Assembly (NCBI GenBank): GCA_030641665.1
Contig: DAOWHA010000050.1
Location: 2,632 to 66,631, forward strand
DNA length: 64,000 nucleotides
Source of the DNA: a bacterium
GTDB taxonomy: Bacteria; Patescibacteriota; Patescibacteriia; JAACEG01
Direction: 5' to 3'
Shown: positions 11,434 to 63,603 of the stretch, piece after piece
Layout of the letters: every line of letters begins with the position of its first letter
How positions within the stretch are numbered: the first letter of the stretch is position 1
Notes under the pieces: generated by a model
What the model was told of the DNA's origin: nothing
The model's database searches: none
What the model saw: only the letters and a program-made list of their open reading frames with translations
Program-made: the position numbers and the translations under genes

Positions 11434-12573
11434 ATGTTGAAATATTTTATTAAAACCTACGGCTGCCAGATGAACGAAAGCGATTCGGAAAGAATATCTG
11501 CCACGCTGGAAAATATCAGATATAAAAAAACAGATAATTTTAAAAAGGCTGATTTGATAATTTTTAATATGTGTGCGGTTCGGCAGACAGCAGTTGACCG
11601 CGTTCATGGGCAGTTAAAAAACATAAAAAAATTAAAGGTTGAAAACAAAAGACTGAAAATTTTTTTGACAGGATGTATTTTAGATTGCGATAAAAAAAAA
11701 CTGTCTGAAAAAGTTGATCTTATTTTTGATATTAGAGATCTTGAATCACTTTATCTTTGCGATGAGTTGAGCAACCTCTCCGCTCACTCGCTACACTCAT
11801 TTAACTCCTCGCAAAGACAAGATAAAAAAAATGACTATAATTATCTGAAAATCAAGCCGAAATATGAATATAAAAAATCCGCGCTTATTCCAATTATGAC
11901 TGGCTGCGATAATTTCTGCTCTTATTGCGCGGTGCCTTATACGCGCGGAAAGGAATACTCGCGCCCCGCAGATGATATTTTAAATGAAGTTAAAAATTTA
12001 ATTAAAAATGGATGCGAAAAAATTACTCTATTAGGACAAAATGTGAATAGTTATCGGATGTCGGACGTCAGATGTCGGATGTCAAAAATTTCAAATTTTT
12101 CGAATTTATTAAAATTAATTAACAATATAAAAGGCGAATTTGAAATTAATTTTTTAACAAGCCATCCAAAAGATATGAGTGATAAATTAATTCAGGCAAT
12201 CGCTGAGTGTAAAAAAGTGTCAAAAAACTTGCATCTGCCTTTTCAATCTGGAAGCGACGCAATATTAAAAAAAATGAACAGAAAATATACTCGACAAGAT
12301 TATCTGAATTTAGTTAAAAAAATAAAGACTGCAATTCCTGAAATAAAATTTTCAACAGATGTTATTGTCGGCTTTCCCGGAGAAACAAAAAAACAGTTTG
12401 AAGAAACTGTTAGCGTAATAAAAAAAGTAAATTTTGAAACAATTTATGTAAATAAATATTCTGCGCGAAAAGGAACGCTTGCCGAAAAACTTTACAAAGA
12501 TAATGTTAGTTTAAAAGAAAAAAAATCGCGATGGAGAATAATTAATAATTTTAATAAAAAGTTAAAGAGATAA
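11434..12573 (+). CDS. MiaB/RimO-family radical-SAM methylthiotransferase
   Basis: MTTase N-domain YGCQMNESDSE and radical SAM CDNFCSYC. Adjacent miaA favours MiaB. Carries an in-frame heptamer-repeat insertion YRMSDVRCRMS. Confidence 0.75.
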   Translation: MLKYFIKTYGCQMNESDSERISATLENIRYKKTDNFKKADLIIFNMCAVRQTAVDRVHGQLKNIKKLKVENKRLKIFLTGCILDCDKKKLSEKVDLIFDIRDLESLYLCDELSNLSAHSLHSFNSSQRQDKKNDYNYLKIKPKYEYKKSALIPIMTGCDNFCSYCAVPYTRGKEYSRPADDILNEVKNLIKNGCEKITLLGQNVNSYRMSDVRCRMSKISNFSNLLKLINNIKGEFEINFLTSHPKDMSDKLIQAIAECKKVSKNLHLPFQSGSDAILKKMNRKYTRQDYLNLVKKIKTAIPEIKFSTDVIVGFPGETKKQFEETVSVIKKVNFETIYVNKYSARKGTLAEKLYKDNVSLKEKKSRWRIINNFNKKLKR

Positions 12574-23642: not shown

Positions 23643-25196
23643 TTAACTCTCTATATAATCTAAAGTATTCTTATAATCCTTAATTAACTTGTTAATTTTC
23701 TCCTCTATTCTTTCATTTAATTCTCCTTTTTCCGCAATCTCTTTTAAAATATCTTCGCCGTTTATTTTCGCGTATTTATTTAATCCAATTTCAAATTCGC
23801 TGATTTTTTCAACAGGGATATCATCTAAAAAGCCAGCGGTAATAGCGTAAAAAATTAAAACTTGATTAGCGACAGGAATCGGTCGATATTGATCTTGCTT
23901 AAATATTTCAACCAATCTTTTTCCTCTTTCTAATTTTGCTTTTGTTTCATCGTCTAAATCAGAACCGAATTGCGCGAACGCGGCTAACTCCCTGTATTGC
24001 GCGGCTTCCAGCCTCATTTTGCCTGCAACTTTTTTCATCGCCTTAATCTGCGCGGCACTTCCTACGCGCGATACTGACAAGCCAGCATTTACGGCAGGCC
24101 TATTTCCTTGATAAAACAGATCTGGTTCAAGATAAATCTGCCCGTCAGTAATTGATATTACATTTGTCGGAATATAAGCAGATACATCTCCCGCCTGTGT
24201 TTCAATAATCGGCAGCGCCGTGATTGATCCTCCGCCGCAATCTTTATTTAATTTACATGCTCTTTCCAGTAATCTTGAATGCAGATAAAAAACATCTCCG
24301 GGATAAGCTTCACGCCCCGGCGGTCGCTTCAATAATAAGGAAATCTCTCGGTAAGCTACAGCATGCTTGCTTAGATCGTCATAAACAATTAAAGCGTCTT
24401 CGCCTTTGTCTAAAAAATATTCCGCTATGGCGCATCCGGCATAAGGCGCGATATAAGAAAACGCCGCCGGGTCGGACGCGCCAGCCAGCACAATAGTAGT
24501 GTAATCCATCGCGCCATGCTCTTCCAGTTTTGCGGCGATGTTAGCGACTTTTGATTCTTTCTGTCCGATTGCGACATAAATGCATTTCATATTCTGCCCT
24601 TTCTGGTTGATAATAGCGTCAATGGCAATCGCGGTTTTTCCGATCTGGCGATCGCCGATTATCAATTCTCTCTGCCCCCTTCCGATCGGAATCATCGCGT
24701 CAATCGCTTTAATTCCCGTCTGAACCGGCTCAAAAACAGATTCTCTGGAAATAACCCCTGGGGCTATTTTTTCAACTGGATAATATTTTTCCGCCTCGAT
24801 TTCACCTTTTCCGTCAATCGGCTGCCCCAAAGCGTTAACAGTTCTGCCGATAATGTTCTCTCCTGTTGGGACTTCTAAAATTCTTTTTAAGCATTTCACT
24901 TCATCGCCTTCTTTAATTTTAGAACAATCTCCTAAAATAATCGCGCCAACACTGTCCTCTTCCAAATTTAAAGCGACACCATATTGGATTTCGGATTTCG
25001 GATTTCGGATTTCGGATTTTTTATTGCTTGAAAATTCAAGCATCTCCGACATCATCACATCGGAAAGCCCTGAAACGCGAGCGATTCCGTCGCCGACTTC
25101 AATGACTTTGCCGACTGTCTGCTCTTTAATCTCTGTTTTAAAATTCGCGATTTGCTTTTTTAATTGTTCAACAATAAAATCTTTTGTATTGCTCAT
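23643..25196 (-). CDS. atpA: F1 ATP synthase alpha subunit (with in-frame heptamer-repeat insertion)
   Basis: Walker [16 protein letters not shown]. Full-length alpha subunit. Insertion [17 protein letters not shown] is encoded by (gatttcg)n at 24987-25019. Confidence 0.95.
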
Positions 25197-28162: not shown

Positions 28163-28409
28163 CTTCCTTGTTTTTACTTAAATTATCTAAATCTTTCATC
28201 GCCTTAATAGCGTTATAAACAATTCCGACATTGGAAATTATAAACGCAATAAAAACGGACAATAAAAACAGTTTTGGCTCTGTGCCATACTTATCATCCA
28301 GCCACTTTCCAAAGAAAATAGCCGCTATAATCGGAACGGCAATCCATCCTGACAGTTTCAAAAAAAGTTCAATTCCCGGCTGCCACCAATTGTTTTCTTT
28401 TCTGCTCAT
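28128..28409 (-). CDS. AtpI/AtpZ-like small membrane protein, first gene of the atp operon
   Basis: 93 aa, two TM segments. Position and size typical of atpI. Overlaps the atpB start. Confidence 0.5.
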   Translation of the reverse strand: MSRKENNWWQPGIELFLKLSGWIAVPIIAAIFFGKWLDDKYGTEPKLFLLSVFIAFIISNVGIVYNAIKAMKDLDNLSKNKEDEPDSKQRGTK

Positions 28410-28502
28410 AGGAATTTCAAAAAAAATAAAAAACCGCAGATCGCCTACGCTATATAAATTATTATGAATAAATTTTTTGTTTTTGTCAAGATAAAAATGA
28501 AC

Positions 28503-28518
28503 TGCGGAGAGGGAGGGA
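28503..28518. repeat. 16-bp direct repeat of the tRNA-Ser(GCU) 3' end (att-like islet boundary)
   Basis: tgcggagagggaggga is identical to 31057-31072, the acceptor/T-stem 3' end of the intact tRNA-Ser. Confidence 0.6.
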
Positions 28519-28561
28519 CGATGTTGAAATATGGCTAAATAGTATTTTAGATAATAGTTGT

Positions 28562-30067
28562 CTAAAATAAATCAAAATCAACAAGACCTTCATTTAAACT
28601 TTTCCAAAAACCTTTCTTTTTTTCTTTAATTTCTGATTGCACTTTAATATTGATAGTATTAGATATTTTTTGATGTTTCTTGTTATTTCTCTCTATGCCC
28701 ACCATCATAGAATATCCAGGAAATTTTTCATCGTCCCAGTCAGTCTGCCATTTTCCATTTTTCCAAACCCAATTATTCAAATTATTATCAACGAAAGACC
28801 ATGATGTATCTTTTTTTGGATTTACTCTATCAGGTATATTTTCAAACAATTTTAGTATTTTATCAGGTTTGAAAATTGGGCAAATTCTTAACTGCTGAAA
28901 TTGACGATCTATCTCTTTTTTTATTTTATCTTTATTAAAAATCCACTCACCGCTTTGGGTGTTAATATATCCATATTCTCGCCAAGAATTTTGTTTAAAC
29001 TCATTAAAGTAAAAATTTTTACATCCAAATTTGTTTATGTTACCGTCCCATTCGTTTGTGCGACAATAATCTAAAGATTTACCTGTTTTGACTTTTTCTT
29101 TATAACACCACAAACCATTACGAAGCATAGTTGAGCGTATAGGCTTTCCGTCTATCTCTATATTTTGTGTTTTCCAACCACTTGTATAGTCAAGCATGGT
29201 GTATAAATTTTCTATATTCTCAATATCAAAATAAGCGGAGTAAATAGTGTCACCTTTTTCTTCTATTTTTTCAAATGTTTTCTGTTTTTCTATAAAAATT
29301 ATTGCTTTCTCTCTTTTTTTTGAAGTAGATTTACCGAATGATATTTTGATTTTTCTTTTACCTTTTTCATTTCTATTTTTCTCATTTTTATTGACTGAAA
29401 ATATTTCAACATCAATATTAAGTTCATCGGACAAAAAAGAGTGCCATTCCATTTGTTTGGTTGAAATTTTGTCTTTTTCGCTCTTTACTTCTGCAAAAAA
29501 ATATTTATCTTTTGAATAAACAAATAAGTCTGGAAGTCCTGATCTATTATAACTAAAATTTTTGAATAATCTTTCTATGATGCTTAATAATTTATCCTTT
29601 TCCATTACATCAACAGCAATACACAACTGATCTATTGAAAATTTATCCCAGTTTTCAATAGGTCTACAATATTTTTTAAAATTATTTTTATATGAATTAA
29701 CTAAAACTTCTTTTATATCAATATTTACAAGTTCTTTTAATTTATTTTTTAATAGGCTTTTTCTTGTTGAATAAAAATTATCAGAAAAAAAATCTCTAGG
29801 CATGTCCTGATATTCGTTAGGAAAATTTTCGCCAAACTCTGGACTCCAAACACCGTCAATTTTAGCAAATATAATATCCCAAAATAATAAAGCATATATT
29901 TCCCACCAATAACTATTTTCTGTCCAAATAGAAAAAAGACTTTCTTTTTCATAAATTTTTCGAGCAAATTCTTCAACAAAAAAATAGTCATTGTCTAATA
30001 AATACTTAATCTTTTTACCAGATGAAAAATTTTGCTTTTCAGCTTGTATATTTTTTTCAGAAATCAT
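28562..30067 (-). CDS. VRR-NUC-domain nuclease-like protein (hypothetical), in a low-GC islet
   Basis: GLPDLFVYSKDKYFFAEVKSEKDKISTKQMEWHSFL fits the VRR-NUC D...EVK...Q motif. Long Trp-rich C-terminal tail. Confidence 0.45.
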   Translation of the reverse strand: MISEKNIQAEKQNFSSGKKIKYLLDNDYFFVEEFARKIYEKESLFSIWTENSYWWEIYALLFWDIIFAKIDGVWSPEFGENFPNEYQDMPRDFFSDNFYSTRKSLLKNKLKELVNIDIKEVLVNSYKNNFKKYCRPIENWDKFSIDQLCIAVDVMEKDKLLSIIERLFKNFSYNRSGLPDLFVYSKDKYFFAEVKSEKDKISTKQMEWHSFLSDELNIDVEIFSVNKNEKNRNEKGKRKIKISFGKSTSKKREKAIIFIEKQKTFEKIEEKGDTIYSAYFDIENIENLYTMLDYTSGWKTQNIEIDGKPIRSTMLRNGLWCYKEKVKTGKSLDYCRTNEWDGNINKFGCKNFYFNEFKQNSWREYGYINTQSGEWIFNKDKIKKEIDRQFQQLRICPIFKPDKILKLFENIPDRVNPKKDTSWSFVDNNLNNWVWKNGKWQTDWDDEKFPGYSMMVGIERNNKKHQKISNTINIKVQSEIKEKKKGFWKSLNEGLVDFDLF

Positions 30068-30099
30068 GAAATGATCTTATTTAACTTATATTTCAAATT

Positions 30100-30855
30100 T
30101 TATAAATTATTATAAGCCTCAACCTGATTATTATATTCGTATTTAATCATTTCGTAATCATCACCCCATTTTTGTTTTGCATTAGTCATAATGTTTGGAT
30201 ATTCAGTTTGAGATATTATCCATTCATAGGCTCCAGCTTGATTGTTGTATTCATACTTCACCATTTCAAAATCATTATTCCATTTGGTTTTAGCTTTTGC
30301 CATAATATCTGGATATCTTGTTTGTGCTACAACCCAGTCGTATACTTGAACTTGATTATTATATTCATATTGAACCATTTCATAATCGGTACCCCATTTT
30401 GAAGAAGCGTTTGCTTTTAGAATTGTAAGGATATTTTCCCTATTAGTTTTTTGGGTTGGCGCAGGTGTCTCAGGTGCTGGCTCTTTTTTTGGAGGAGCAG
30501 TTGCTATTTCTGTAGATATGGTTTCTTCTTTTTGGGTCTTGGGCTTTTCGATAATTTCATTTTTATTTGTTGTTTGCTCCTTCTCTTGTTCGTCATCAAT
30601 TTTTACTGTTTGATTATCCGCCTCAATATTTTCAGAAATTTTATTTTCTTGCGCAACTTGTGGTGTTTGTGTGGTTGGTTCTGTCGTAATTCCAAATAAA
30701 ATAAAAAATACTAAGGCAAAGATTCCAAAAATCATTACTGTAACTTTTCGTGTTGCTCGCTCTTTTAGAAAGCGAATAAAAATGTCTGGTTTAATCAAGC
30801 CAACAATCAATGCAATGATTGAGGTTAAAAATAAAAGTAAAAATAAATTGTCCAT
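30100..30855 (-). CDS. Membrane-anchored protein with three tandem ~36-aa KWGxDYEMVxYEYNNQ repeats (hypothetical)
   Basis: N-terminal two TM, Pro/Thr/Glu-rich linker, then KWGTDYEMVQYEYNNQVQVYDWVVAQTRYPDIM / KWNNDFEMVKYEYNNQAGAYEWIISQTEYPNIM / KWGDDYEMIKYEYNNQ. Confidence 0.5.
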   Translation of the reverse strand: MDNLFLLLFLTSIIALIVGLIKPDIFIRFLKERATRKVTVMIFGIFALVFFILFGITTEPTTQTPQVAQENKISENIEADNQTVKIDDEQEKEQTTNKNEIIEKPKTQKEETISTEIATAPPKKEPAPETPAPTQKTNRENILTILKANASSKWGTDYEMVQYEYNNQVQVYDWVVAQTRYPDIMAKAKTKWNNDFEMVKYEYNNQAGAYEWIISQTEYPNIMTNAKQKWGDDYEMIKYEYNNQVEAYNNL

Positions 30856-30950
30856 AGTATTGTTATTAAAAAATTATTTATAAACAAAAAATTAATTTTT
30901 TCTTAGCGCTAAATTCGTCTTCCGTAATAATTCCTTTTTATAAAATGAAT

Positions 30951-31038
30951 GCGGAGAGGGATGGATTCGCCCTGTCATCCGACAGGGCGCCCCGATGGAT
31001 ATCGGGGCGAACCATTAAGCTAGTTGCCCAACTAACAC
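30951..31038 (-). pseudogene. 3' fragment of a tRNA-Ser-like gene with a 40-nt double-hairpin insert in the T-loop (fragment A)
   Basis: gcggagagggatggattcg[ccctgtcatccgacagggcg ccccgatggatatcggggcg]aaccattaagctagttgcccaactaacac. Variable arm + T arm + acceptor 3' only. Confidence 0.7.
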
Positions 31039-31058
31039 AATATCAAATTTATTAAATG

Positions 31059-31145
31059 CGGAGAGGGAGGGATTCGAACCCTCGAGCCAGTTGCCCAGCT
31101 AACACCTTAGCAGGGTGCCCCTTTCAACCACTCAGGCACCTCTCC
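31059..31145 (-). tRNA. tRNA-Ser(GCU): tRNA-Ser (anticodon GCU), type II, intact
   Basis: Sense GGAGAGGTGCCTGAGTGGTTGAAAGGGGCACCCTGCTAAGGTGTTAGCTGGGCAACTGGCTCGAGGGTTCGAATCCCTCCCTCTCCG. Anticodon loop CTGCTAA. No CCA encoded. Confidence 0.85.
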
Positions 31146-31151
31146 GTTTTT

Positions 31152-31412
31152 TTATTTTCCCAACTTAATAAACAATTCTTTGATTTGTTGTTTTAAAAAA
31201 TATTTTCCTTCTGTTGTTTTTAAATATTTTTCTCTTCTTTCGGCATCCTTTTTTAATAAATACGCTTCATAATGAACTAATTTAATCGGCAGCCGCCTAT
31301 TTGTTGATTTGACTTTACCTGATTTGTGCTCAATAATTCTGCGTTTTAAATTGCTCGTAAATCCAGTATACAATTGGTTGTTATTTAATAATAAAATATA
31401 AACATAATACAT
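31152..31412 (-). CDS. GIY-YIG nuclease-domain small protein (UPF0213/YhbQ-like)
   Basis: YYVYILLLNNNQLYTGFTSNLKRRIIEH, a GIY-YIG signature. Sits between the intact tRNA-Ser and a truncated copy. Confidence 0.65.
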   Translation of the reverse strand: MYYVYILLLNNNQLYTGFTSNLKRRIIEHKSGKVKSTNRRLPIKLVHYEAYLLKKDAERREKYLKTTEGKYFLKQQIKELFIKLGK

Positions 31413-31437
31413 AAACTCTTAACCATTGACTTATTAA

Positions 31438-31541
31438 GCGGAGAGGGAGGGATTCGCCCCGATATCCATCGGGGCGCCACGGCGGATGCCGTGGCGAACC
31501 CTCGAGCCAGTTGCCCTGCTAACACCTTAGCAGGGTGCCCC
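31438..31541 (-). pseudogene. 3' fragment of a tRNA-Ser(GCU)-like gene with 40-nt T-loop insert (fragment B)
   Basis: gcggagagggagggattcg[ccccgatatccatcggggcg ccacggcggatgccgtggcg]aaccctcgagccagttgccctgctaacaccttagcagggtgcccc. Lacks D arm and 5' acceptor. Confidence 0.7.
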
Positions 31542-31598
31542 TTTTTTAACCCCGTCGGAAATCCGATATCGAAATCCGAATTCCGAAATAGAAATAGC

Positions 31599-31684
31599 GG
31601 AGAGATAGGGATTCGAACCCTAGGAACCCGTGAAGGCTCAACGGTTTTCAAGACCGTCCCATTCAACCGCTCTGGCATCTCTCC
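31599..31684 (-). tRNA. tRNA-Ser(UGA): tRNA-Ser (anticodon UGA), type II, intact
   Basis: Sense GGAGAGATGCCAGAGCGGTTGAATGGGACGGTCTTGAAAACCGTTGAGCCTTCACGGGTTCCTAGGGTTCGAATCCCTATCTCTCCG. Anticodon loop CTTGAAA. Confidence 0.85.
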
Positions 31685-31727
31685 AATATATTTAATTGTG
31701 TATAAAAATAAATTTGCCCGTTAACTT

Positions 31728-31843
31728 GGATTCGCCCCGATATCCATCGGGGCGCCACGGCGGATGCCGTGGCGAACCCCCGGAACCCTTGCGGGTTCTC
31801 CGGTTTTCAAGACCGGCGCATTAGACCGCTCTGCCACGCTTCC
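31728..31843 (-). pseudogene. 5' fragment of a divergent tRNA-Ser(UGA)-like gene with 40-nt T-loop insert, 3' acceptor strand missing (fragment D)
   Basis: Sense GGAAGCGTGGCAGAGCGGTCTAATGCGCCGGTCTTGAAAACCGGAGAACCCGCAAGGGTTCCGGGGGTT[insert]CGAATCC, then unrelated sequence. Confidence 0.65.
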
Positions 31844-32089
31844 ATATTTTTTAGATTTTTCCGCCCAAGGCGGACCAGCCTATGGCTGACAACCGCTATG
31901 CGACATCTCCGTTTCGGATTTCAAATATCAGATATTTTTAAAAAATAATCCGAAATCCGAGTTCCGATATCTGATATCTGACATCCGATATCTTTGACAA
32001 TAAAACGATGATAATCTATAATAAAATAAATATTAAAAAATATTCAAGATTATTAGTAATAATAGAATAATTTTTGTTTTTGTCAATTT

Positions 32090-32590
32090 ATGGCTAAAGA
32101 AAAGATTAAAAATATATACGGTAAAATTATCAAAAGCTGGACATTCCCCGAGTATATAAAATACGACCGCAGCCGAAGATGGTATATTATAGTTTCTATA
32201 ATTTTTATATCACTGATTTTTTATAACTTTAAAACAGATAATTTTTTATTTATCATTATTTTAGTCATGCTTGCTTTAATTATTGTTGAATCGCGCAGAA
32301 AAAAACCGATGGAAGTAAAATTCAGCATTACTGAAAATGGAATTATGCTTAACGACGCTTTTTACGATTACAATAAAAATTTAAACAAATTTTGGATTGT
32401 TTACGATCCGCCAGAAGTTAAAAAAATATATTTTGAATTCAAAAATATGCTGCGCACGCATTTGGTTATTCCGATTACCGACCAATCACCGCTAGACTTA
32501 AGGGATATTTTATTAGAATACTTAGATGAAGATCTTGAAAAAGAAGGGGAATCAACAGCAGAAGCGCTTGGAAGACTATTAAAATTATAA
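32090..32590 (+). CDS. Hypothetical membrane protein
   Basis: 166 aa, two TM near the N-terminus (YIIVSIIFISLIFYNF; FLFIIILVMLALIIV). No motif. Confidence 0.45.
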   Translation: MAKEKIKNIYGKIIKSWTFPEYIKYDRSRRWYIIVSIIFISLIFYNFKTDNFLFIIILVMLALIIVESRRKKPMEVKFSITENGIMLNDAFYDYNKNLNKFWIVYDPPEVKKIYFEFKNMLRTHLVIPITDQSPLDLRDILLEYLDEDLEKEGESTAEALGRLLKL

Positions 32591-32893: not shown

Positions 32894-32967
32894 GTTCCCA
32901 TAGCTCAGTTGGATAGAGCGTCAGCTTGCGGAGCTGAAGGTCAGAGGTTCAAATCCTCTTGGGGACA
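32894..32967 (+). tRNA. tRNA-Arg(GCG): tRNA-Arg (anticodon GCG)
   Basis: GTTCCCATAGCTCAGTTGGATAGAGCGTCAGCTTGCGGAGCTGAAGGTCAGAGGTTCAAATCCTCTTGGGGACA. Anticodon loop TTGCGGA. Ends 4 nt before the recG ATG. Confidence 0.85.
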
Positions 32968-32971
32968 CATT

Positions 32972-35098
32972 ATGTTAAACTTAACAACTCTGGCGGATGA
33001 AATTTCGCCGATAACGCGGAAGCTGTCAACTAAATTAAAAAGGTTAAAAATTGAGATTGTTGAAGATCTCATTTTTTATTATCCGTTCAGGTATGACGAT
33101 TTCAGCAGCGTAAAAAAAATCGCTGATCTAAACTGCGGAGATATTGTTACGATTAAAGGACGGGTTGATCTGATTGAAAACAGAAGAAGCCCGTTTCAAA
33201 AAAAAAATATTACGCAGGCGATAATAAGCGACGAAACAGGATCCATAAACGCAATCTGGTTTAACCAGCCGTATATAATAAAAAGCATAAGAACAGGTGA
33301 AAATATCTATCTTGCCGGAAAAATTGATTTGGACCATGACAATCCGCAGATGAAAAATCCTGAATATGAAAAAATAAATTATTCAACTATCGCCGGGCGG
33401 CTGGCCCCTGTCTATCATCTCACAGCGGGAATTACCAATAAGCAGATCAGATTTATGATTAAACTTTCACTGCCAGCAATTAAAAGCATAAAAGACTGGC
33501 TGCCGACAAAAATCCAAAATAGAACCAAGCTGATACCTTTAAATATCGCTTTAACTAATATCCATTTTCCGCAAGATAAAAACGCTCTTAATCAAGCCGC
33601 GCGGCGATTGAAATTTGACGAACTGTTTTTAATCCAGATGAAAAATTTAATAGCTAAAAATCGGCTGAAAAAAAACAGCGCGGAAATAATTAATTTTAAA
33701 GAAGCGGAAATTAAAAAATTTGTCGCAAACCTGCCGTTCAAATTAACCGATGATCAAAAAAAATCCTCGTGGACGATTTTAAAAGATCTGCAAAAACCGC
33801 ATCCGATGAATCGCCTTTTAGAAGGCGATGTAGGATGCGGCAAAACAGTCGTTGCCGCCATAGCTATGCTTAACACGGCTCTGAATAATAAACAATCCGT
33901 TTATATGGCTCCAACAGAAATTTTGGCAAAACAGCATTTTGTCTCCATTTCTGAATTGTTAAAAAAATTTAATATTAAAATCGGGCTAATTACAAGAAGC
34001 GAGAGGAAAACGAATTATGAATTAAAAATCAAGAATCAAAAATTAAATAAAAAGAAATCTAATGCTTATAATTCTAAGTCTATAATTCAAAATTCTGATA
34101 TTGTAATCGGCACGCACGCGCTGATACAAAATAAAATTAAATTTAAAAATCTAGTTCTAACAATCATAGACGAACAGCACCGTTTCGGGGTAGACCAAAG
34201 AAAAGCGCTCGCGGAAAAATTAAAATGTAATAAAAAAAATCCGACATCCGACATCCGACATCCGACATCCGAAATGCCCCATTTTCTGTCAATGACAGCT
34301 ACGCCGATCCCGAGAACCTTGCATTTAGCGCTTGATGGCGATTTGGATTTGAGCGTTATTAAAGAGATGCCGAAAAACAGAAAAAAAGTTTTGACAAAAA
34401 TCGTTGAAAATAATAAAAGGCAAAAAGCTTATGAATTTATCCAAAAACAGATAGGGGATGGGAGACAAATATTCGTAATCTGCCCTCTAATTGATCCAAG
34501 CGATAAATTAGGGGTGAAATCCGTGAGCGAGGAATATGAAAAATTAAACAAAAAAATTTTCCCGGATATTAAAATAGAAATTTTGCATGGCAAACTAAAG
34601 GCGGAAAAAAAAGAAAAAATAATGCAAAATTTTTTAAACAACAAAACAAAAGTTTTAGTGGCAACTTCTGTTGTGGAAGTCGGCGTTGATATCCCCAATG
34701 CAACTATTATAATGATAGAAGGTGCGGAGCGGTTCGGGTTGGCGCAACTGCACCAATTCCGCGGACGGGTCGGACGGAGCGCGTTTCAGTCTTACTGTTT
34801 TTTATTCAGCGATAATTTAACGGCTAAAGCCAGTAATAGATTGGAGGCGTTAGTTGATTGTAATGATGGATTTGAACTTGCGCGCCGAGATTTGGAATTC
34901 AGGGGCGCCGGCGATATTTACGGACAGGAGCAGTCAGGGCTCCCTAAATTAAAAATCGCCACGCTTTTCGACTATGAACTTATGCAAAAAGTTAGAGACG
35001 AGGCAGAGCAAATTTTAACAATGAATTCAGAATTAGAAAAATTTCCTGAACTGAAAAACCGAATGAAAGAATTTGAAAAATCAATTCATTTGGAATAA
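32972..35098 (+). CDS. recG: ATP-dependent DNA helicase RecG
   Basis: Wedge/OB N-domain, Walker A GDVGCGKTVVAA, DEQH box IIDEQHRFG, helicase C QLHQFRGRVGR. In-frame PTSDIRHPTSEM from (ccgacat)n at 34239-34273. Start is ATG 32972; the ORF-track start 32909 overlaps the tRNA. Confidence 0.9.
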   Translation: MLNLTTLADEISPITRKLSTKLKRLKIEIVEDLIFYYPFRYDDFSSVKKIADLNCGDIVTIKGRVDLIENRRSPFQKKNITQAIISDETGSINAIWFNQPYIIKSIRTGENIYLAGKIDLDHDNPQMKNPEYEKINYSTIAGRLAPVYHLTAGITNKQIRFMIKLSLPAIKSIKDWLPTKIQNRTKLIPLNIALTNIHFPQDKNALNQAARRLKFDELFLIQMKNLIAKNRLKKNSAEIINFKEAEIKKFVANLPFKLTDDQKKSSWTILKDLQKPHPMNRLLEGDVGCGKTVVAAIAMLNTALNNKQSVYMAPTEILAKQHFVSISELLKKFNIKIGLITRSERKTNYELKIKNQKLNKKKSNAYNSKSIIQNSDIVIGTHALIQNKIKFKNLVLTIIDEQHRFGVDQRKALAEKLKCNKKNPTSDIRHPTSEMPHFLSMTATPIPRTLHLALDGDLDLSVIKEMPKNRKKVLTKIVENNKRQKAYEFIQKQIGDGRQIFVICPLIDPSDKLGVKSVSEEYEKLNKKIFPDIKIEILHGKLKAEKKEKIMQNFLNNKTKVLVATSVVEVGVDIPNATIIMIEGAERFGLAQLHQFRGRVGRSAFQSYCFLFSDNLTAKASNRLEALVDCNDGFELARRDLEFRGAGDIYGQEQSGLPKLKIATLFDYELMQKVRDEAEQILTMNSELEKFPELKNRMKEFEKSIHLE

Positions 35099-35217: not shown

Positions 35218-35880
35218 TTATTCTTTCTTTAATTTATTTAAATTTTCAACAAGCAGATAAACCGTTGTTGAGGGATTCTTTTTTGAAAATGATTTTTCGT
35301 TTTTATGCATATTTAACAGTTTTTTAGCATTTCTAATTGCATCTTTTTCAGTATCCTTTAGTAAAAGGTACATATCTTTTGATATTTTACTATATCTTAT
35401 TTTAGAGTTGCCTGTAAGTTTTTTTAGATTATCCGTTAATTTTAATATATAATCTTTCCTGCTAATAGCCGAACTAAGCGGAATAAAATGCAACAAAAAC
35501 CATATTTCAAAACATTCATTTGAATAAGCTACTTCTAAATTATTTACCCCTGCCTTAATTATCGCATTATCAAAATGCTGATCAAAATTATCTTTATCAA
35601 AAACAACCCAGCACTCATCGCTATTTTCCGAATTATCAATTTTAATATTTCTTTCTTTTATAAATTCTATCGCAAAATTTACAAGTTTTAAAGTATTATA
35701 TCCAGTACCTGCAATTTTTATCTTAATATTTTGTCTTCTAATTTCTGTTTCAATTTCTTTCTTTTTTGATTCAAAATAATTTACTTCAGTTTTTTCTCCT
35801 TCTGTAAAAATATAAATAAATTTATACTGTTTTCGTGTATCGTATTTTCTATTTAATTTACATTCTAACTTTTTGCTCAT
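35218..35880 (-). CDS. RloB-family (TOPRIM/OLD-like) protein; AbiLii/AriB-like partner of the upstream ATPase
   Basis: FIYIFTEGEKTEVNYF is the hallmark RloB N-terminal motif. Start placed at ATG 35880, 10 nt after the ATPase stop. Confidence 0.7.
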   Translation of the reverse strand: MSKKLECKLNRKYDTRKQYKFIYIFTEGEKTEVNYFESKKKEIETEIRRQNIKIKIAGTGYNTLKLVNFAIEFIKERNIKIDNSENSDECWVVFDKDNFDQHFDNAIIKAGVNNLEVAYSNECFEIWFLLHFIPLSSAISRKDYILKLTDNLKKLTGNSKIRYSKISKDMYLLLKDTEKDAIRNAKKLLNMHKNEKSFSKKNPSTTVYLLVENLNKLKKE

Positions 35881-35890
35881 ATTTTTTAAA

Positions 35891-37120
35891 TTATACAGAA
35901 TCAATAAATGGCAATGCTCCGAATCTGCCCTTAAGGTATTTTTTAGAAAATTCAGTATCATTTCTTAAATCAGAATCAAACTCAGCTAAAGAAAACAGAT
36001 CGCCTGCCCCAAACTTATTTTTTTCCGTAAACCAAAATTGTTCTTTGATAAAATCATCCTTATATGAAAGCAGACTTGTATCATGAGTAGTAACTATCAA
36101 TTGAGCATTATTCGGATTATTTTTTTCAAACAAATCAATAATAAATTTAGTTAAAAGCGGATGAACACTATTATCGAATTCATCAATAAATAAAACTTTG
36201 CCGTTTTCAAGCGTGTCGGCTATAGGTCCAATTACATCAAAAAATTTTTGCGTTCCTTCGGACTCATTACCTAAATTAAATTTTTCAACTCCATTTTTTT
36301 TATCTTTTGAATTAAATTTACTGTGTAAAAAAAATACAGTGTCCATCGTGTTTGGAATTTTTTTTTCGTTCATAAACATCATTTGTTTTCTTATATGTTC
36401 GGGTAATGGTATTTTTCTAACTTCTATATCAATAATAGAAAAATCGGCTTTTTGCAAAAAATTTAAAACTTTATTTTTTTTATTTGAGTTGTCCCTAATC
36501 AATTTTAATGTATACCCCCTATATTCACCATTATTAAAACCGCTAATAATATTAATATTTTTAAATCCATCTACAATTTTCATAGCAAGTTCATTATTCC
36601 ATTGAGAAACTGCAGACAAAAATAATATTTCTTTTCTAGTTTTCACTTTAGCAATATCTTCACTTCCTTTAAAATCATTAAATAATTGAAATGATTGTTC
36701 TTTTCTAATTAAACATTTTTTTTCTTCTCCAGTAGATAAAATTTCTAATAAATTTTCTGTAATAATTTTATCTTTTAAAATAGAAAAATTATATTTAAAA
36801 ATTTGGTTATCTAAAGAAAAAATAATTTCAAAAAAGGATGGTTGATTATTATCATCTGAAAGTAAAAATGGGTAATATGGCAAGCTTGAATCTTCGGAAT
36901 TTTTTAATGAGTAAATTATTCCTTCTCTTAATAAATCGAAAGCATTAAGCAATGTGCTTTTACCAGAGGAATTTGGACCATATATTAAAGAAATTTTTAA
37001 TAAGTTTCGTTTATTTTTTTCAAAAGTATGCTCGCTTTTTCTTGCCAACATAGAAAAAGTTGTCTTTTCTTTAAAAATTTTAAAATTTTTTACTGAAAAT
37101 TCAATAATTGATATTGACAT
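35891..37120 (-). CDS. AAA_21/AAA_15-type ATPase (RloA/AbiLi/AriA-like abortive-infection ATPase)
   Basis: Walker A GPNSSGKSTLLNAF near the N-terminus, distal Walker B VLFIDEFDNSVHP and IVTTHD, the split ABC-like AAA_21 architecture. Confidence 0.75.
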   Translation of the reverse strand: MSISIIEFSVKNFKIFKEKTTFSMLARKSEHTFEKNKRNLLKISLIYGPNSSGKSTLLNAFDLLREGIIYSLKNSEDSSLPYYPFLLSDDNNQPSFFEIIFSLDNQIFKYNFSILKDKIITENLLEILSTGEEKKCLIRKEQSFQLFNDFKGSEDIAKVKTRKEILFLSAVSQWNNELAMKIVDGFKNINIISGFNNGEYRGYTLKLIRDNSNKKNKVLNFLQKADFSIIDIEVRKIPLPEHIRKQMMFMNEKKIPNTMDTVFFLHSKFNSKDKKNGVEKFNLGNESEGTQKFFDVIGPIADTLENGKVLFIDEFDNSVHPLLTKFIIDLFEKNNPNNAQLIVTTHDTSLLSYKDDFIKEQFWFTEKNKFGAGDLFSLAEFDSDLRNDTEFSKKYLKGRFGALPFIDSV

Positions 37121-56111: not shown

Positions 56112-56194
56112 TGGTGGGAAGCAAACAAATTTTTGAAATCAAAATTTTTCTTTTTAATTAAATCTATTTTCTTTTTTCTTGAACCGCCTTTAAT

Positions 56195-56398
56195 CTATTT
56201 TTCTCTTAAAATCGCTTCTTCTATTTTATCAAAAACTTCATAGTAAACTAATTTGTCAACATTATATTTTTTAGTAAATCCTTTAATTGTTTTATTTTTA
56301 TGCTCTTTAATTCTTCTATTTAAATCATTAGTTACACCCGTATAAATAACTGTATTATTTTGATTGCAGAGTATGTATATAAAATATTGCTTTTGCAT
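56195..56398 (-). CDS. GIY-YIG nuclease-domain small protein (second paralogue)
   Basis: QYFIYILCNQNNTVIYTGVTNDLNRRIKEHKN. Flanked by repeat copy 11 and half-copy 12. Its start codon lies inside the half-copy. Confidence 0.6.
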   Translation of the reverse strand: MQKQYFIYILCNQNNTVIYTGVTNDLNRRIKEHKNKTIKGFTKKYNVDKLVYYEVFDKIEEAILREK

Positions 56399-62683: not shown

Positions 62684-62843
62684 AAAATAAAAGGACTGTT
62701 TGCCGCGCAAATCTCAAGGGCTTGATTTTTTATATTTTTTTTGTAGAATAATTAATAACGATAAAATATTCAAAGAATTGAAAAAATGGTAAATTAAATT
62801 TAAATAGTCCGAAATCTGATATCTGAAATCTGATATCCGATAT

Positions 62844-63370: not shown

Positions 63371-63435
63371 TTTCGGATTTCGGAATTCAGATGTCGGATA
63401 TCGGATTATATTTAAATAGTCTGACATCCGAAATG

Positions 63436-63508: not shown

Positions 63509-63603
63509 GTAGCAGATATCGGACTTCGGAAATCGGATATCGGACTATTTAAATTTAAAATTTAATTCTAACTCAAATTCATTATAGCACAATAAAAACT
63601 GCT

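Follow-up and report, generated by a model that had tools for sequence, protein, structure and literature searches.

We analyzed a 64-kb window (the whole stretch of 64,000 nucleotides, positions 2,632 to 66,631 of contig DAOWHA010000050.1, assembly GCA_030641665.1, from a bacterium of the Patescibacteriota), in which an intact tRNA-Ser(GCU) gene lies next to a small AT-rich islet and among interrupted copies of tRNA-Ser genes. On balance, it is probable that two kinds of DNA targeting the T-loop and 3′ end of tRNA genes shaped this locus: an old islet of two genes, and a separate module composed of a small GIY-YIG nuclease gene and a double hairpin. The data support the view that the islet arose long ago, when a cassette of two genes inserted into the T-loop/3′ end of a tRNA-Ser gene, and we infer that the GIY-YIG/hairpin unit is a tRNA-targeting homing or transposon-like module. 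Read along the minus strand, from high to low coordinates, the locus comprises fragment D (31910–31856), fragment C (31843–31727), an intact tRNA-Ser(UGA) (31684–31597; ARAGORN and Rfam), a leader made of a heptamer array (31596–31541), fragment B (31541–31438), the GIY-YIG gene (31412–31152), the intact tRNA-Ser(GCU) (31145–31058), fragment A (31038–30950), a gene for a repeat protein, a gene for a VRR-NUC nuclease, a 16-mer that repeats the tRNA 3′ end, the atp promoter and the ATP synthase operon. Within 3.4 kb there are two intact tRNA-Ser genes and no fewer than four pieces derived from tRNA-Ser.

Fragments A, B and C are pseudo-copies of tRNA-Ser, each carrying a 38-nt double perfect hairpin at the point TTCG^CGAA of the T-loop. 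The hairpin has the form CC-N5-ATCC-N5′-GG-CG-CC-M5-GGAT-M5′-GG and stands between TTCG and CGAA; the intact TTCGAAT thus corresponds to TTCG-[38 nt]-CGAAT in the interrupted copies, with the central CG present on both sides as an apparent 2-nt duplication. Including the flanking TTCG and CGAA, the hairpins occupy positions 30966–31011 (HP3, in fragment A; stems CCCTGTC and CCCCGAT, loops ATCC and GGAT), 31453–31498 (HP2, in fragment B; stems CCCCGAT and CCACGGC) and 31731–31776 (HP1, in fragment C; identical to HP2), and are pairwise combinations of three modules. They are the only three GC-rich hairpins of this kind in the 64 kb, and all of them lie in tRNA-Ser T-loops. A pattern scan of metagenomes recovered 20 instances on 17 contigs, all in tRNA-like T arms (Ser, Gln, Ala, Asn and unidentified), but the pattern demanded TTCG...CGAA flanks, so that the T-loop siting of these 17 loci is partly by construction.

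Together with the window and L004, the closest genome locus (comparison loci are designated by L numbers), the scan yielded 24 hairpin instances, 20 of them distinct. Two perfect 7-bp stems were present in 23 of the 24, although at least 10 differing stem sequences were represented. Among the 20 distinct sequences, 99.6% of the stem cells were paired and two-sided changes occurred in 9 of the 14 pairs; there were no one-sided (G–T) changes, and G–U/G–T pairs occupied 0 of the 280 stem cells. None of 500 shuffles reached the observed values of pairing and covariation, and no slid register came near them. The double hairpin has dyad symmetry, both strands reading alike. The lack of wobble pairs, combined with this symmetry, argues for a DNA-level palindrome that pairs on both strands over an RNA helix. 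The predicted folding is strong, with z-scores of −3.3 to −5.4.

Comparison with relatives revealed how the hairpins vary. At the site orthologous to fragment A in L004 (A′), one whole hairpin is swapped (CCCCGAT versus CCACGGC) between flanks that are about 98% identical. The T-loop variant TTCGAGT in L126 is found as TTCG-hairpin-CGAGT, indicating that the flanks of the hairpin derive from the target; different loop sequences occur in the hairpins of L118 and L126. The hairpin is the only interruption in an otherwise complete tRNA-Ala(GGC) of L095, which was the one carrier among 24 in which removal of the hairpin in silico gave a complete tRNA (0 of 3 in the window). Hairpins were also found in the anticodon loop (GGGTTCT..CTGGTCCC, with CT on either side of the insertion in L108) and in the D loop of tRNA-Gln in L108 and L122. 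The disabled tRNA-Gln upstream of the GIY-YIG gene of L122 (1340–1500) carries a single hairpin in the D loop, a single one in the anticodon loop and a double one in the T-loop, which suggests that single hairpins are the insertable unit and accumulate in dead copies. An E-value scan of positions 28300–32200 with Rfam returned tRNA and chance matches only, and no known RNA or intron family for the hairpin. The hairpin pattern had 0 matches in IMG/VR.

The GIY-YIG gene (31152–31412, minus strand) lies between fragment B and tRNA-Ser(GCU), its stop codon being about 6 nt from the 5′ end of the tRNA. It encodes an 86-aa protein of the UPF0213/YhbQ type (PF01541, 8.4e-15; PDB 1zg2 and 1ywl), which is 97.7% identical to its L004 counterpart. 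The domain spans residues 1–70 of the 86, leaving a bare catalytic core, and relatives measure 83–87 aa. Close relatives form at least 600 clusters, nearly all of them from Patescibacteria and many on very short contigs. We compared 11 GIY-YIG loci, namely those of the window, L004, L083, L084, L086 (also seen as L096), L089, L094, L108, L118, L122 and L126. A tRNA starts 3–10 nt past the GIY-YIG stop codon in nine of them; the gap is 145 nt in L083, and the open reading frame (ORF) of L084 has lost its stop, continuing into the tRNA. In 10 of the 11 loci, the 5′ part of the same tRNA and the double hairpin are followed, after 13–45 nt, by the GIY-YIG ATG, giving the layout tRNA 5′ part plus hairpins, GIY-YIG gene, intact cognate tRNA. 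In L004, the exception, the GIY-YIG gene directly adjoins an intact tRNA-Ser(UGA), and the hairpin found farther upstream is degraded. Since L108, L118, L122 and L126 were chosen on protein similarity alone, the association is not a product of the DNA pattern. L094 and L096 carry two tandem units, and L086 is the L096 locus with one unit. GIY-YIG paralogs at 37–53% identity have neither hairpins nor tRNA adjoining them. A second paralog in the window (56189–56386, minus strand), 45% identical to the tRNA-linked protein, has no downstream tRNA and no upstream hairpins.

The tRNA-Ser fragments differ in the part of the tRNA that they retain. Fragment A (30950–31038, minus strand) consists of a tRNA-Ser 3′ half (variable arm, T arm and acceptor 3′ strand) with the double hairpin, and shows compensatory changes in the T stem and variable arm. 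The original prediction had counted it as cargo of the islet; the fragment is real, but it is a hairpin-interrupted pseudo-copy that we attribute to a different, GIY-YIG-linked element, and its T-loop insertion of 40 nt had gone unremarked. Fragment B (31438–31541, minus strand) is a tRNA-Ser(GCU) without the acceptor 5′ strand and D arm, but with a complete 3′ end and the double hairpin in the T-loop; together with the leader (184 nt in total), it is missing from L004. Fragment C (31727–31843, minus strand) runs from the 5′ part of a foreign-type tRNA-Ser(UGA), with the acceptor sequence GGAAGCG, to the T-loop, continues with the double hairpin and then CGAATCC, and lacks the 3′ end. Rfam matched it as a tRNA at 30.4 bits with a 56-nt insertion, and ARAGORN missed it. 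A single T-loop insertion bounded by two hairpins did not fit, as fragments C and B differ in acceptor type. We also rejected split or trans-spliced tRNA halves, because fragments B and C are overlapping, not complementary, parts and have acceptor strands that do not pair. Fragment D (31856–31910, minus strand), which no tool called a tRNA, is possibly the 5′ end of a type II tRNA-like sequence (GGAGATGTCGCATAGCGGTTG...) followed by the small hairpin TCCGCC-TTG-GGCGGA. A piece resembling it occurs in the same place, upstream of tRNA-Ser(UGA), in L090 (7150–7200).

The islet is bounded on its right by a displaced tRNA-Ser 3′ segment (28503–28518, minus strand). As originally predicted, the 16-mer TGCGGAGAGGGAGGGA is present in perfect copies at 28503–28518 and 31057–31072, and this match goes beyond chance, dinucleotide-preserving shuffles giving 0.00 expected 16-mer matches. 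Because tRNA-Ser(GCU) occupies 31058–31145 on the minus strand (ARAGORN and Rfam), the copy at 31057–31072 is the 3′ end of the tRNA. In the tRNA sense, the 16-mer comprises T60 of the T-loop, which is exactly its first base, the T-stem 3′ strand, the acceptor 3′ strand, the discriminator and 2 nt more. Copies with one mismatch, absent from the original prediction, are located at 30950 (fragment A) and 31437 (fragment B), and the 64-kb window holds four tRNA-Ser 3′ ends rather than two. The intact tRNA-Ser(GCU) had been taken as the left-hand repeat, and its 16/16 match stands. However, the 16-mer with its trailer matches the 3′ end of fragment A with its trailer at 23 of 25 positions with one gap (p ~0.02 for the trailer alone), whereas the trailer of the intact tRNA is unrelated. 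The likelier left-hand repeat is therefore the 3′ end of fragment A (30950–30965). The segment at 28503–28518 lies immediately upstream of the atp promoter (TTGACA-17-CATAAT).

The enclosed DNA is AT-richer than its surroundings, as had been claimed: the GC content of 28519–30949 is 0.278 compared to 0.361 for the window, and just 1% of same-size windows are as low. GC at third codon positions (GC3) is 0.205 in the VRR-NUC gene and 0.234 in the repeat gene, compared to 0.37–0.39 in the flanking atp and recG genes. The islet contains exactly two ORFs, both on the minus strand, which are the two genes named in the original prediction, and its intergenic DNA, about 170 nt in total, has no space for a recombinase pseudogene. 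The first gene (28562–30067) encodes a 501-aa FAN1-like VRR-NUC nuclease (PF08774 VRR_NUC, 6.6e-15; AlphaFold model with a mean predicted local distance difference test score, pLDDT, of 86). As in FAN1 of human and Pseudomonas (paFAN1), a VRR-NUC domain is present and the N-terminal 240 residues superpose on the FAN1 nuclease module (residues 1 to ~240 on 4rib_B; Foldseek, E 6.2e-14, 244 columns, 24–25% identity). Unlike in FAN1, the VRR-NUC domain is located mid-protein and not at the C-terminus, it is followed by a conserved Trp/Cys-rich domain of about 230 residues, and the SAP and UBZ parts were not detected in the 501 aa. This conserved C-terminal half had no structural match in Foldseek and no significant match in Pfam.

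The second gene (30100–30855) encodes a 251-aa membrane-anchored protein with the three 38-aa KWGxDYEMVxYEYNNQ repeats of the original prediction (period of 114 nt, 2.5 copies). Its N-terminal membrane segment belongs to a transmembrane module common to Ltp-family lipoproteins; the likeness is limited to this part and does not cover the repeats, and the isolated KWG-repeat region gave nothing significant in Pfam. The number of repeats differs between sister species, with three in the window (30120–30399) and two in L004 (4362–5003). We also considered a defense-system reading of the islet and the GIY-YIG gene and rejected it: PADLOC returned nothing for the VRR-NUC or repeat protein and only a marginal UzuA match for the GIY-YIG protein, PHROGs gave generic nuclease/resolvase matches only, and NCBIfam gave nothing useful.

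L004, whose AtpB is 94% identical to that of the window, has the same gene order and homologs of both islet genes. Its 16-mer is 15/16 identical and occupies the orthologous position just upstream of the atp promoter; an orthologous copy of the segment is also present in L001. Between the window and L004, the VRR-NUC protein shows 90% aa identity and a ratio of nonsynonymous to synonymous substitution rates (dN/dS) of 0.19, and the repeat protein 80% identity, with one unit fewer in L004, and a dN/dS of 0.31. The presence of the islet in L004 and these ratios indicate that the insertion is older than the split of the two species and that the genes have been maintained. The islet had been read as the decayed remnant of a tRNA-integrating element. 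A tRNA-derived repeat starting from a T-loop base as in att sites, a foreign composition and homologs at differing loci are consistent with the tRNA-integrating part of that reading. By contrast, decay is at odds with two intact genes that are conserved together with the 16-mer in L004 and are under purifying selection; the term fits only in that no mobility gene is left. In L003 (AtpB 90% identical), the atp promoter is shared, but the 16-mer and the VRR-NUC gene are both absent and another gene lies upstream. L003 and the window are homologous from the −35 box onward, some 10 nt beyond the repeat; upstream of the promoter L003 is non-syntenic and has no tRNA cluster.

The 79 homologs of the VRR-NUC protein are patchily distributed (Patescibacteria, Omnitrophica, Nanoarchaeota, Heimdallarchaeia and Methanothermobacter) and occupy differing loci across related genomes, the gene being found at unrelated loci in genomes whose homologs are 59–76% identical. 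In L100 the homolog is 76% identical, and the membrane protein preceding it has the same N-terminal module with an Ltp-type C-terminus. This pair lies between remnants, tctcaccctctccaca (14/16) and ttctccgca, that resemble the 3′ end of the upstream tRNA-Ser(CGA). The L102 homolog directly follows tRNA-Met, tRNA-Met and tRNA-Asp; we looked for a tRNA-Asp repeat flanking it and found none. The homolog adjoins a 535-aa large serine recombinase in L107 (303–3437), accompanies Phage_rep_O and HTH_36 genes in L104, and stands among housekeeping genes in L103 and L105. In L002 (GCA_023142625.1, contig JAGLJD010000060.1, 1–250) the VRR-NUC protein is 100% identical to that of the window. There, fragment A is immediately preceded by tRNA-Ser(GGA) instead of GCU, no GIY-YIG gene is present, and the 3′ 32 nt and the downstream DNA are identical to the window. 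This arrangement reflects either recombination between genes for Ser isoacceptors or misassembly across their shared 3′ part.

We weighed three other explanations of the locus. A tyrosine- or serine-integrase element that entered tRNA-Ser(GCU) at the 3′ end might subsequently have been stripped of the integrase and of most genes, in which case the hairpin fragments would be unrelated later noise. The direct repeat that begins in the T-loop and the low GC of the islet are what such an element would leave; VRR-NUC homologs adjoin large serine recombinases and phage replication genes, and the GIY-YIG/tRNA-Gln locus of L108 is flanked by a serine recombinase (L108, 2001–3817). However, a recombinase gene is lacking from the islet, as is space for a pseudogene, the same integrase-less pair stands between tRNA-Ser remnants at a different locus in L100, the islet genes are under purifying selection in two species, and phage records and IMG/VR gave no matches. 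We therefore regard this explanation as unlikely, although it deserves consideration. As a separate observation, tRNA loci in genomes such as L107 and L108 may also be targets of serine integrases. It is less likely still that no insertion occurred, the locus being a decayed tandem tRNA-Ser array in which a dead copy survives only as the 16-mer and the GC of two native genes drifted downward. The crowding of tRNA-Ser pieces and intact genes would be expected of such an array, the arrangement is stable in the sister species, and the window has other low-GC genes. Against this, the surviving piece starts exactly at T60 with no trace of the rest of the tRNA upstream, the VRR-NUC gene occupies unrelated loci in other genomes, its GC3 and that of its partner (0.20–0.23) are separated by a large gap from those of the flanking core genes, and L003 has neither 16-mer nor gene at the same promoter.

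The third explanation concerns the hairpin, which could act as RNA: as a new bacterial T-loop intron, as a processing or terminator signal of a tRNA operon, or as a 5′ stabilizer of the GIY-YIG mRNA. The hairpin in the otherwise complete tRNA-Ala of L095, its location shortly before the GIY-YIG ORF on the transcribed strand, its strong folding and the compensatory changes in fragment A would all suit an RNA. Yet G–U/G–T pairs, normally tolerated by RNA helices, are absent from the stems, the element is the same on both strands, nearly all of its carriers are tRNAs too truncated for splicing to yield any product, no Rfam family matches, and whole hairpins are swapped as modules between orthologous sites. 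A function as RNA is thus very improbable.

We return to the explanation by two kinds of DNA that target the T-loop, under which the events might have been as follows. A tRNA-Ser gene would once have abutted the atp promoter, and the 16-mer would be the T60-to-3′-end segment of that gene, displaced by about 2.4 kb when the cassette inserted into the T-loop/3′-end region. The islet would then be an old, domesticated mini-island with both genes kept by selection rather than decaying. Candidates for the integration step are a lost integrase acting in trans and the islet's own nuclease. Fragments A, B and C would have been made by a separate selfish module, consisting of the gene for an 83–87-aa GIY-YIG nuclease and the 38-nt double perfect hairpin. 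The nuclease would cut the center of the T-loop hexamer in the T-arm palindrome with the 2-nt stagger typical of GIY-YIG enzymes; GIY-YIG homing enzymes are reported to leave 2-nt 3′ overhangs (PMC2330249, PMC2761285). Considering that it has no DNA-binding domain, the nuclease possibly recognizes the extruded T-arm or the hairpin structure. Insertion of the hairpin at the cut would disable that copy of the tRNA, while the intact cognate tRNA that the module would keep directly after the nuclease gene would leave the host viable. The tRNA sequence would also supply the homology for homing into other genomes, and re-cutting of the intact copy could generate tandem units. Since T60, where the 16-mer breaks off, is three bases away from the site of the hairpin, islet and module appear to target the same few bases of the tRNA gene.

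Several observations weigh against this explanation. The ORF list and Pfam revealed no recombinase or integrase among the islet ORFs, as the original prediction had noted, and the two islet genes, for a nuclease of the repair type and for a surface protein, resemble ordinary cellular genes. Phage collections yielded no cargo homologs: tblastn of the VRR-NUC protein against 50,697 phage records gave no match, and a scan of IMG/VR gave no relatives. We retrieved 80 genome loci with AtpB, of which L003 and L004 were the close ones, and found no empty site among these related atp loci; L004 is filled, and the other 78 are non-syntenic and have no tRNA-Ser near atp. With no empty site for islet or module, insertion is deduced from repeats, composition and comparison rather than observed. 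The GIY-YIG protein has no linked DNA-binding domain, which leaves its site specificity unexplained, and the intact tRNA downstream of its gene keeps the presumed target. The acceptor GGAAGCG of fragment C mismatches the 3′ end of the adjacent intact tRNA, and one simple T-loop insertion cannot account for every junction. The partly built-in T-loop siting of the metagenome loci counts here as well. Finally, all of the compared sequences are metagenome assemblies, in which such repeats are prone to misassembly.

Parts of this arrangement have counterparts in known systems. Double-hairpin elements were reportedly described in Allomyces by Paquin et al. in 2000. Mitochondrial double-hairpin elements, the GC clusters of yeast mitochondria (PMC4478555), the repetitive hairpin-forming elements of sponges (PMC2800124) and REP/RAYT are, like the hairpins studied here, short, non-coding and GC-rich within an AT-rich genome, vary in sequence while keeping their structure, and insert into structured RNA genes. 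Unlike them, the present hairpins have a strict target (the center of a tRNA loop palindrome, with a 2-nt duplication) and perfect stems without wobble pairs, and the partner gene is a GIY-YIG gene rather than the HUH Y1 transposase gene of RAYT. Phage T4 SegB, a free-standing GIY-YIG homing enzyme, acts in a tRNA gene cluster (PMC2330249). The two systems share a GIY-YIG gene among tRNA genes, a cut presumed to fall within or close to a tRNA gene and to be staggered by 2 nt, and a spread that would use flanking tRNA homology in repair. By contrast, the protein described here is an 83–87-aa catalytic core (UPF0213/YhbQ) without the DNA-binding domain of Seg/Tev enzymes, its host is cellular, and a hairpin-interrupted tRNA copy accompanies its gene. 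Three features thus set the module apart from SegB and from organelle double hairpins: the nuclease is minimal, the host is cellular, and a disabled tRNA, the nuclease gene and an intact tRNA form an obligatory trio. The islet resembles tRNA-integrated genomic islands in that a direct repeat of a tRNA 3′ segment, starting in the T-loop, brackets DNA of foreign composition downstream of an intact tRNA, with tandem remnants accumulating at one tRNA. It differs in having no integrase or mobility gene and only two genes, which are under purifying selection and shared by two species. Our search of literature full text, which did not cover subscription journals, found no description of an element combining GIY-YIG and T-loop hairpins; a prior description is possible.

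Further repeats and genes of the window were noted. Tandem heptamers of the form ATCCGAN (reverse complement TCGGATN) occur at 12054–12083, 24986–25019, 31558–31595, 31948–31992, 34239–34272, 62814–62843, 63371–63407 and 63518–63544. Most of these arrays take up the leader that separates a TATTTAAAT-like box from the 5′ end of a tRNA gene, and two perfect arrays lie in frame within genes, in atpA (GGATTTC, 4.9 copies) and recG (ATCCGAC, 4.9 copies). The heptamer core, ATCCGA, recurs in the double hairpins as their loop-plus-stem motif. The listed recG ORF (32909–35098) begins at a TTG inside tRNA-Arg(GCG) (32894–32968); its first ~20 residues are a translation of the tRNA, indicating that the real start of recG is further downstream. 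A second low-GC islet, of the defense type, adjoins recG (35218–37120, minus strand) and encodes an RloB-like protein (PF13707, 8e-46) and an AAA_21 ATPase (4e-34), with a GC content of 0.25 and a GC3 of 0.17–0.19.

On its own, the islet is routine, being a small foreign cassette at a tRNA gene, and the hairpin/GIY-YIG module is the more interesting object at this locus. It is possible, and we put this forward tentatively, that Patescibacteria harbor an undescribed class of tRNA-targeting selfish elements, in which a minimal GIY-YIG nuclease and a DNA double hairpin act together: the loop would be cut at its center, insertion of the hairpin with a 2-nt duplication would disable the tRNA copy, and an intact cognate tRNA would be carried or regenerated beside the nuclease gene. 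The anticodon loop, where it is T-loop-like, would also be a target. Such a disable-and-replace strategy would make the tRNA both portable homology for homing and the reason why the host cannot lose the module, and the same logic, again driven by a nuclease, could apply to the VRR-NUC cassette that lacks an integrase and lies at tRNA-Ser 3′ ends. If true, this would provide a function for the very large family of tiny proteins annotated as "GIY-YIG nuclease family proteins" in candidate-phyla-radiation genomes, and would account for the partial tRNA genes that litter tRNA loci and for the assembly breaks found there. Predictors of tRNA genes will miss or miscall hairpin-interrupted genes, as ARAGORN did for fragment C. 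For biochemistry, the module offers a minimal nuclease that may be guided by structure and whose target, the T-arm, is defined and universal.

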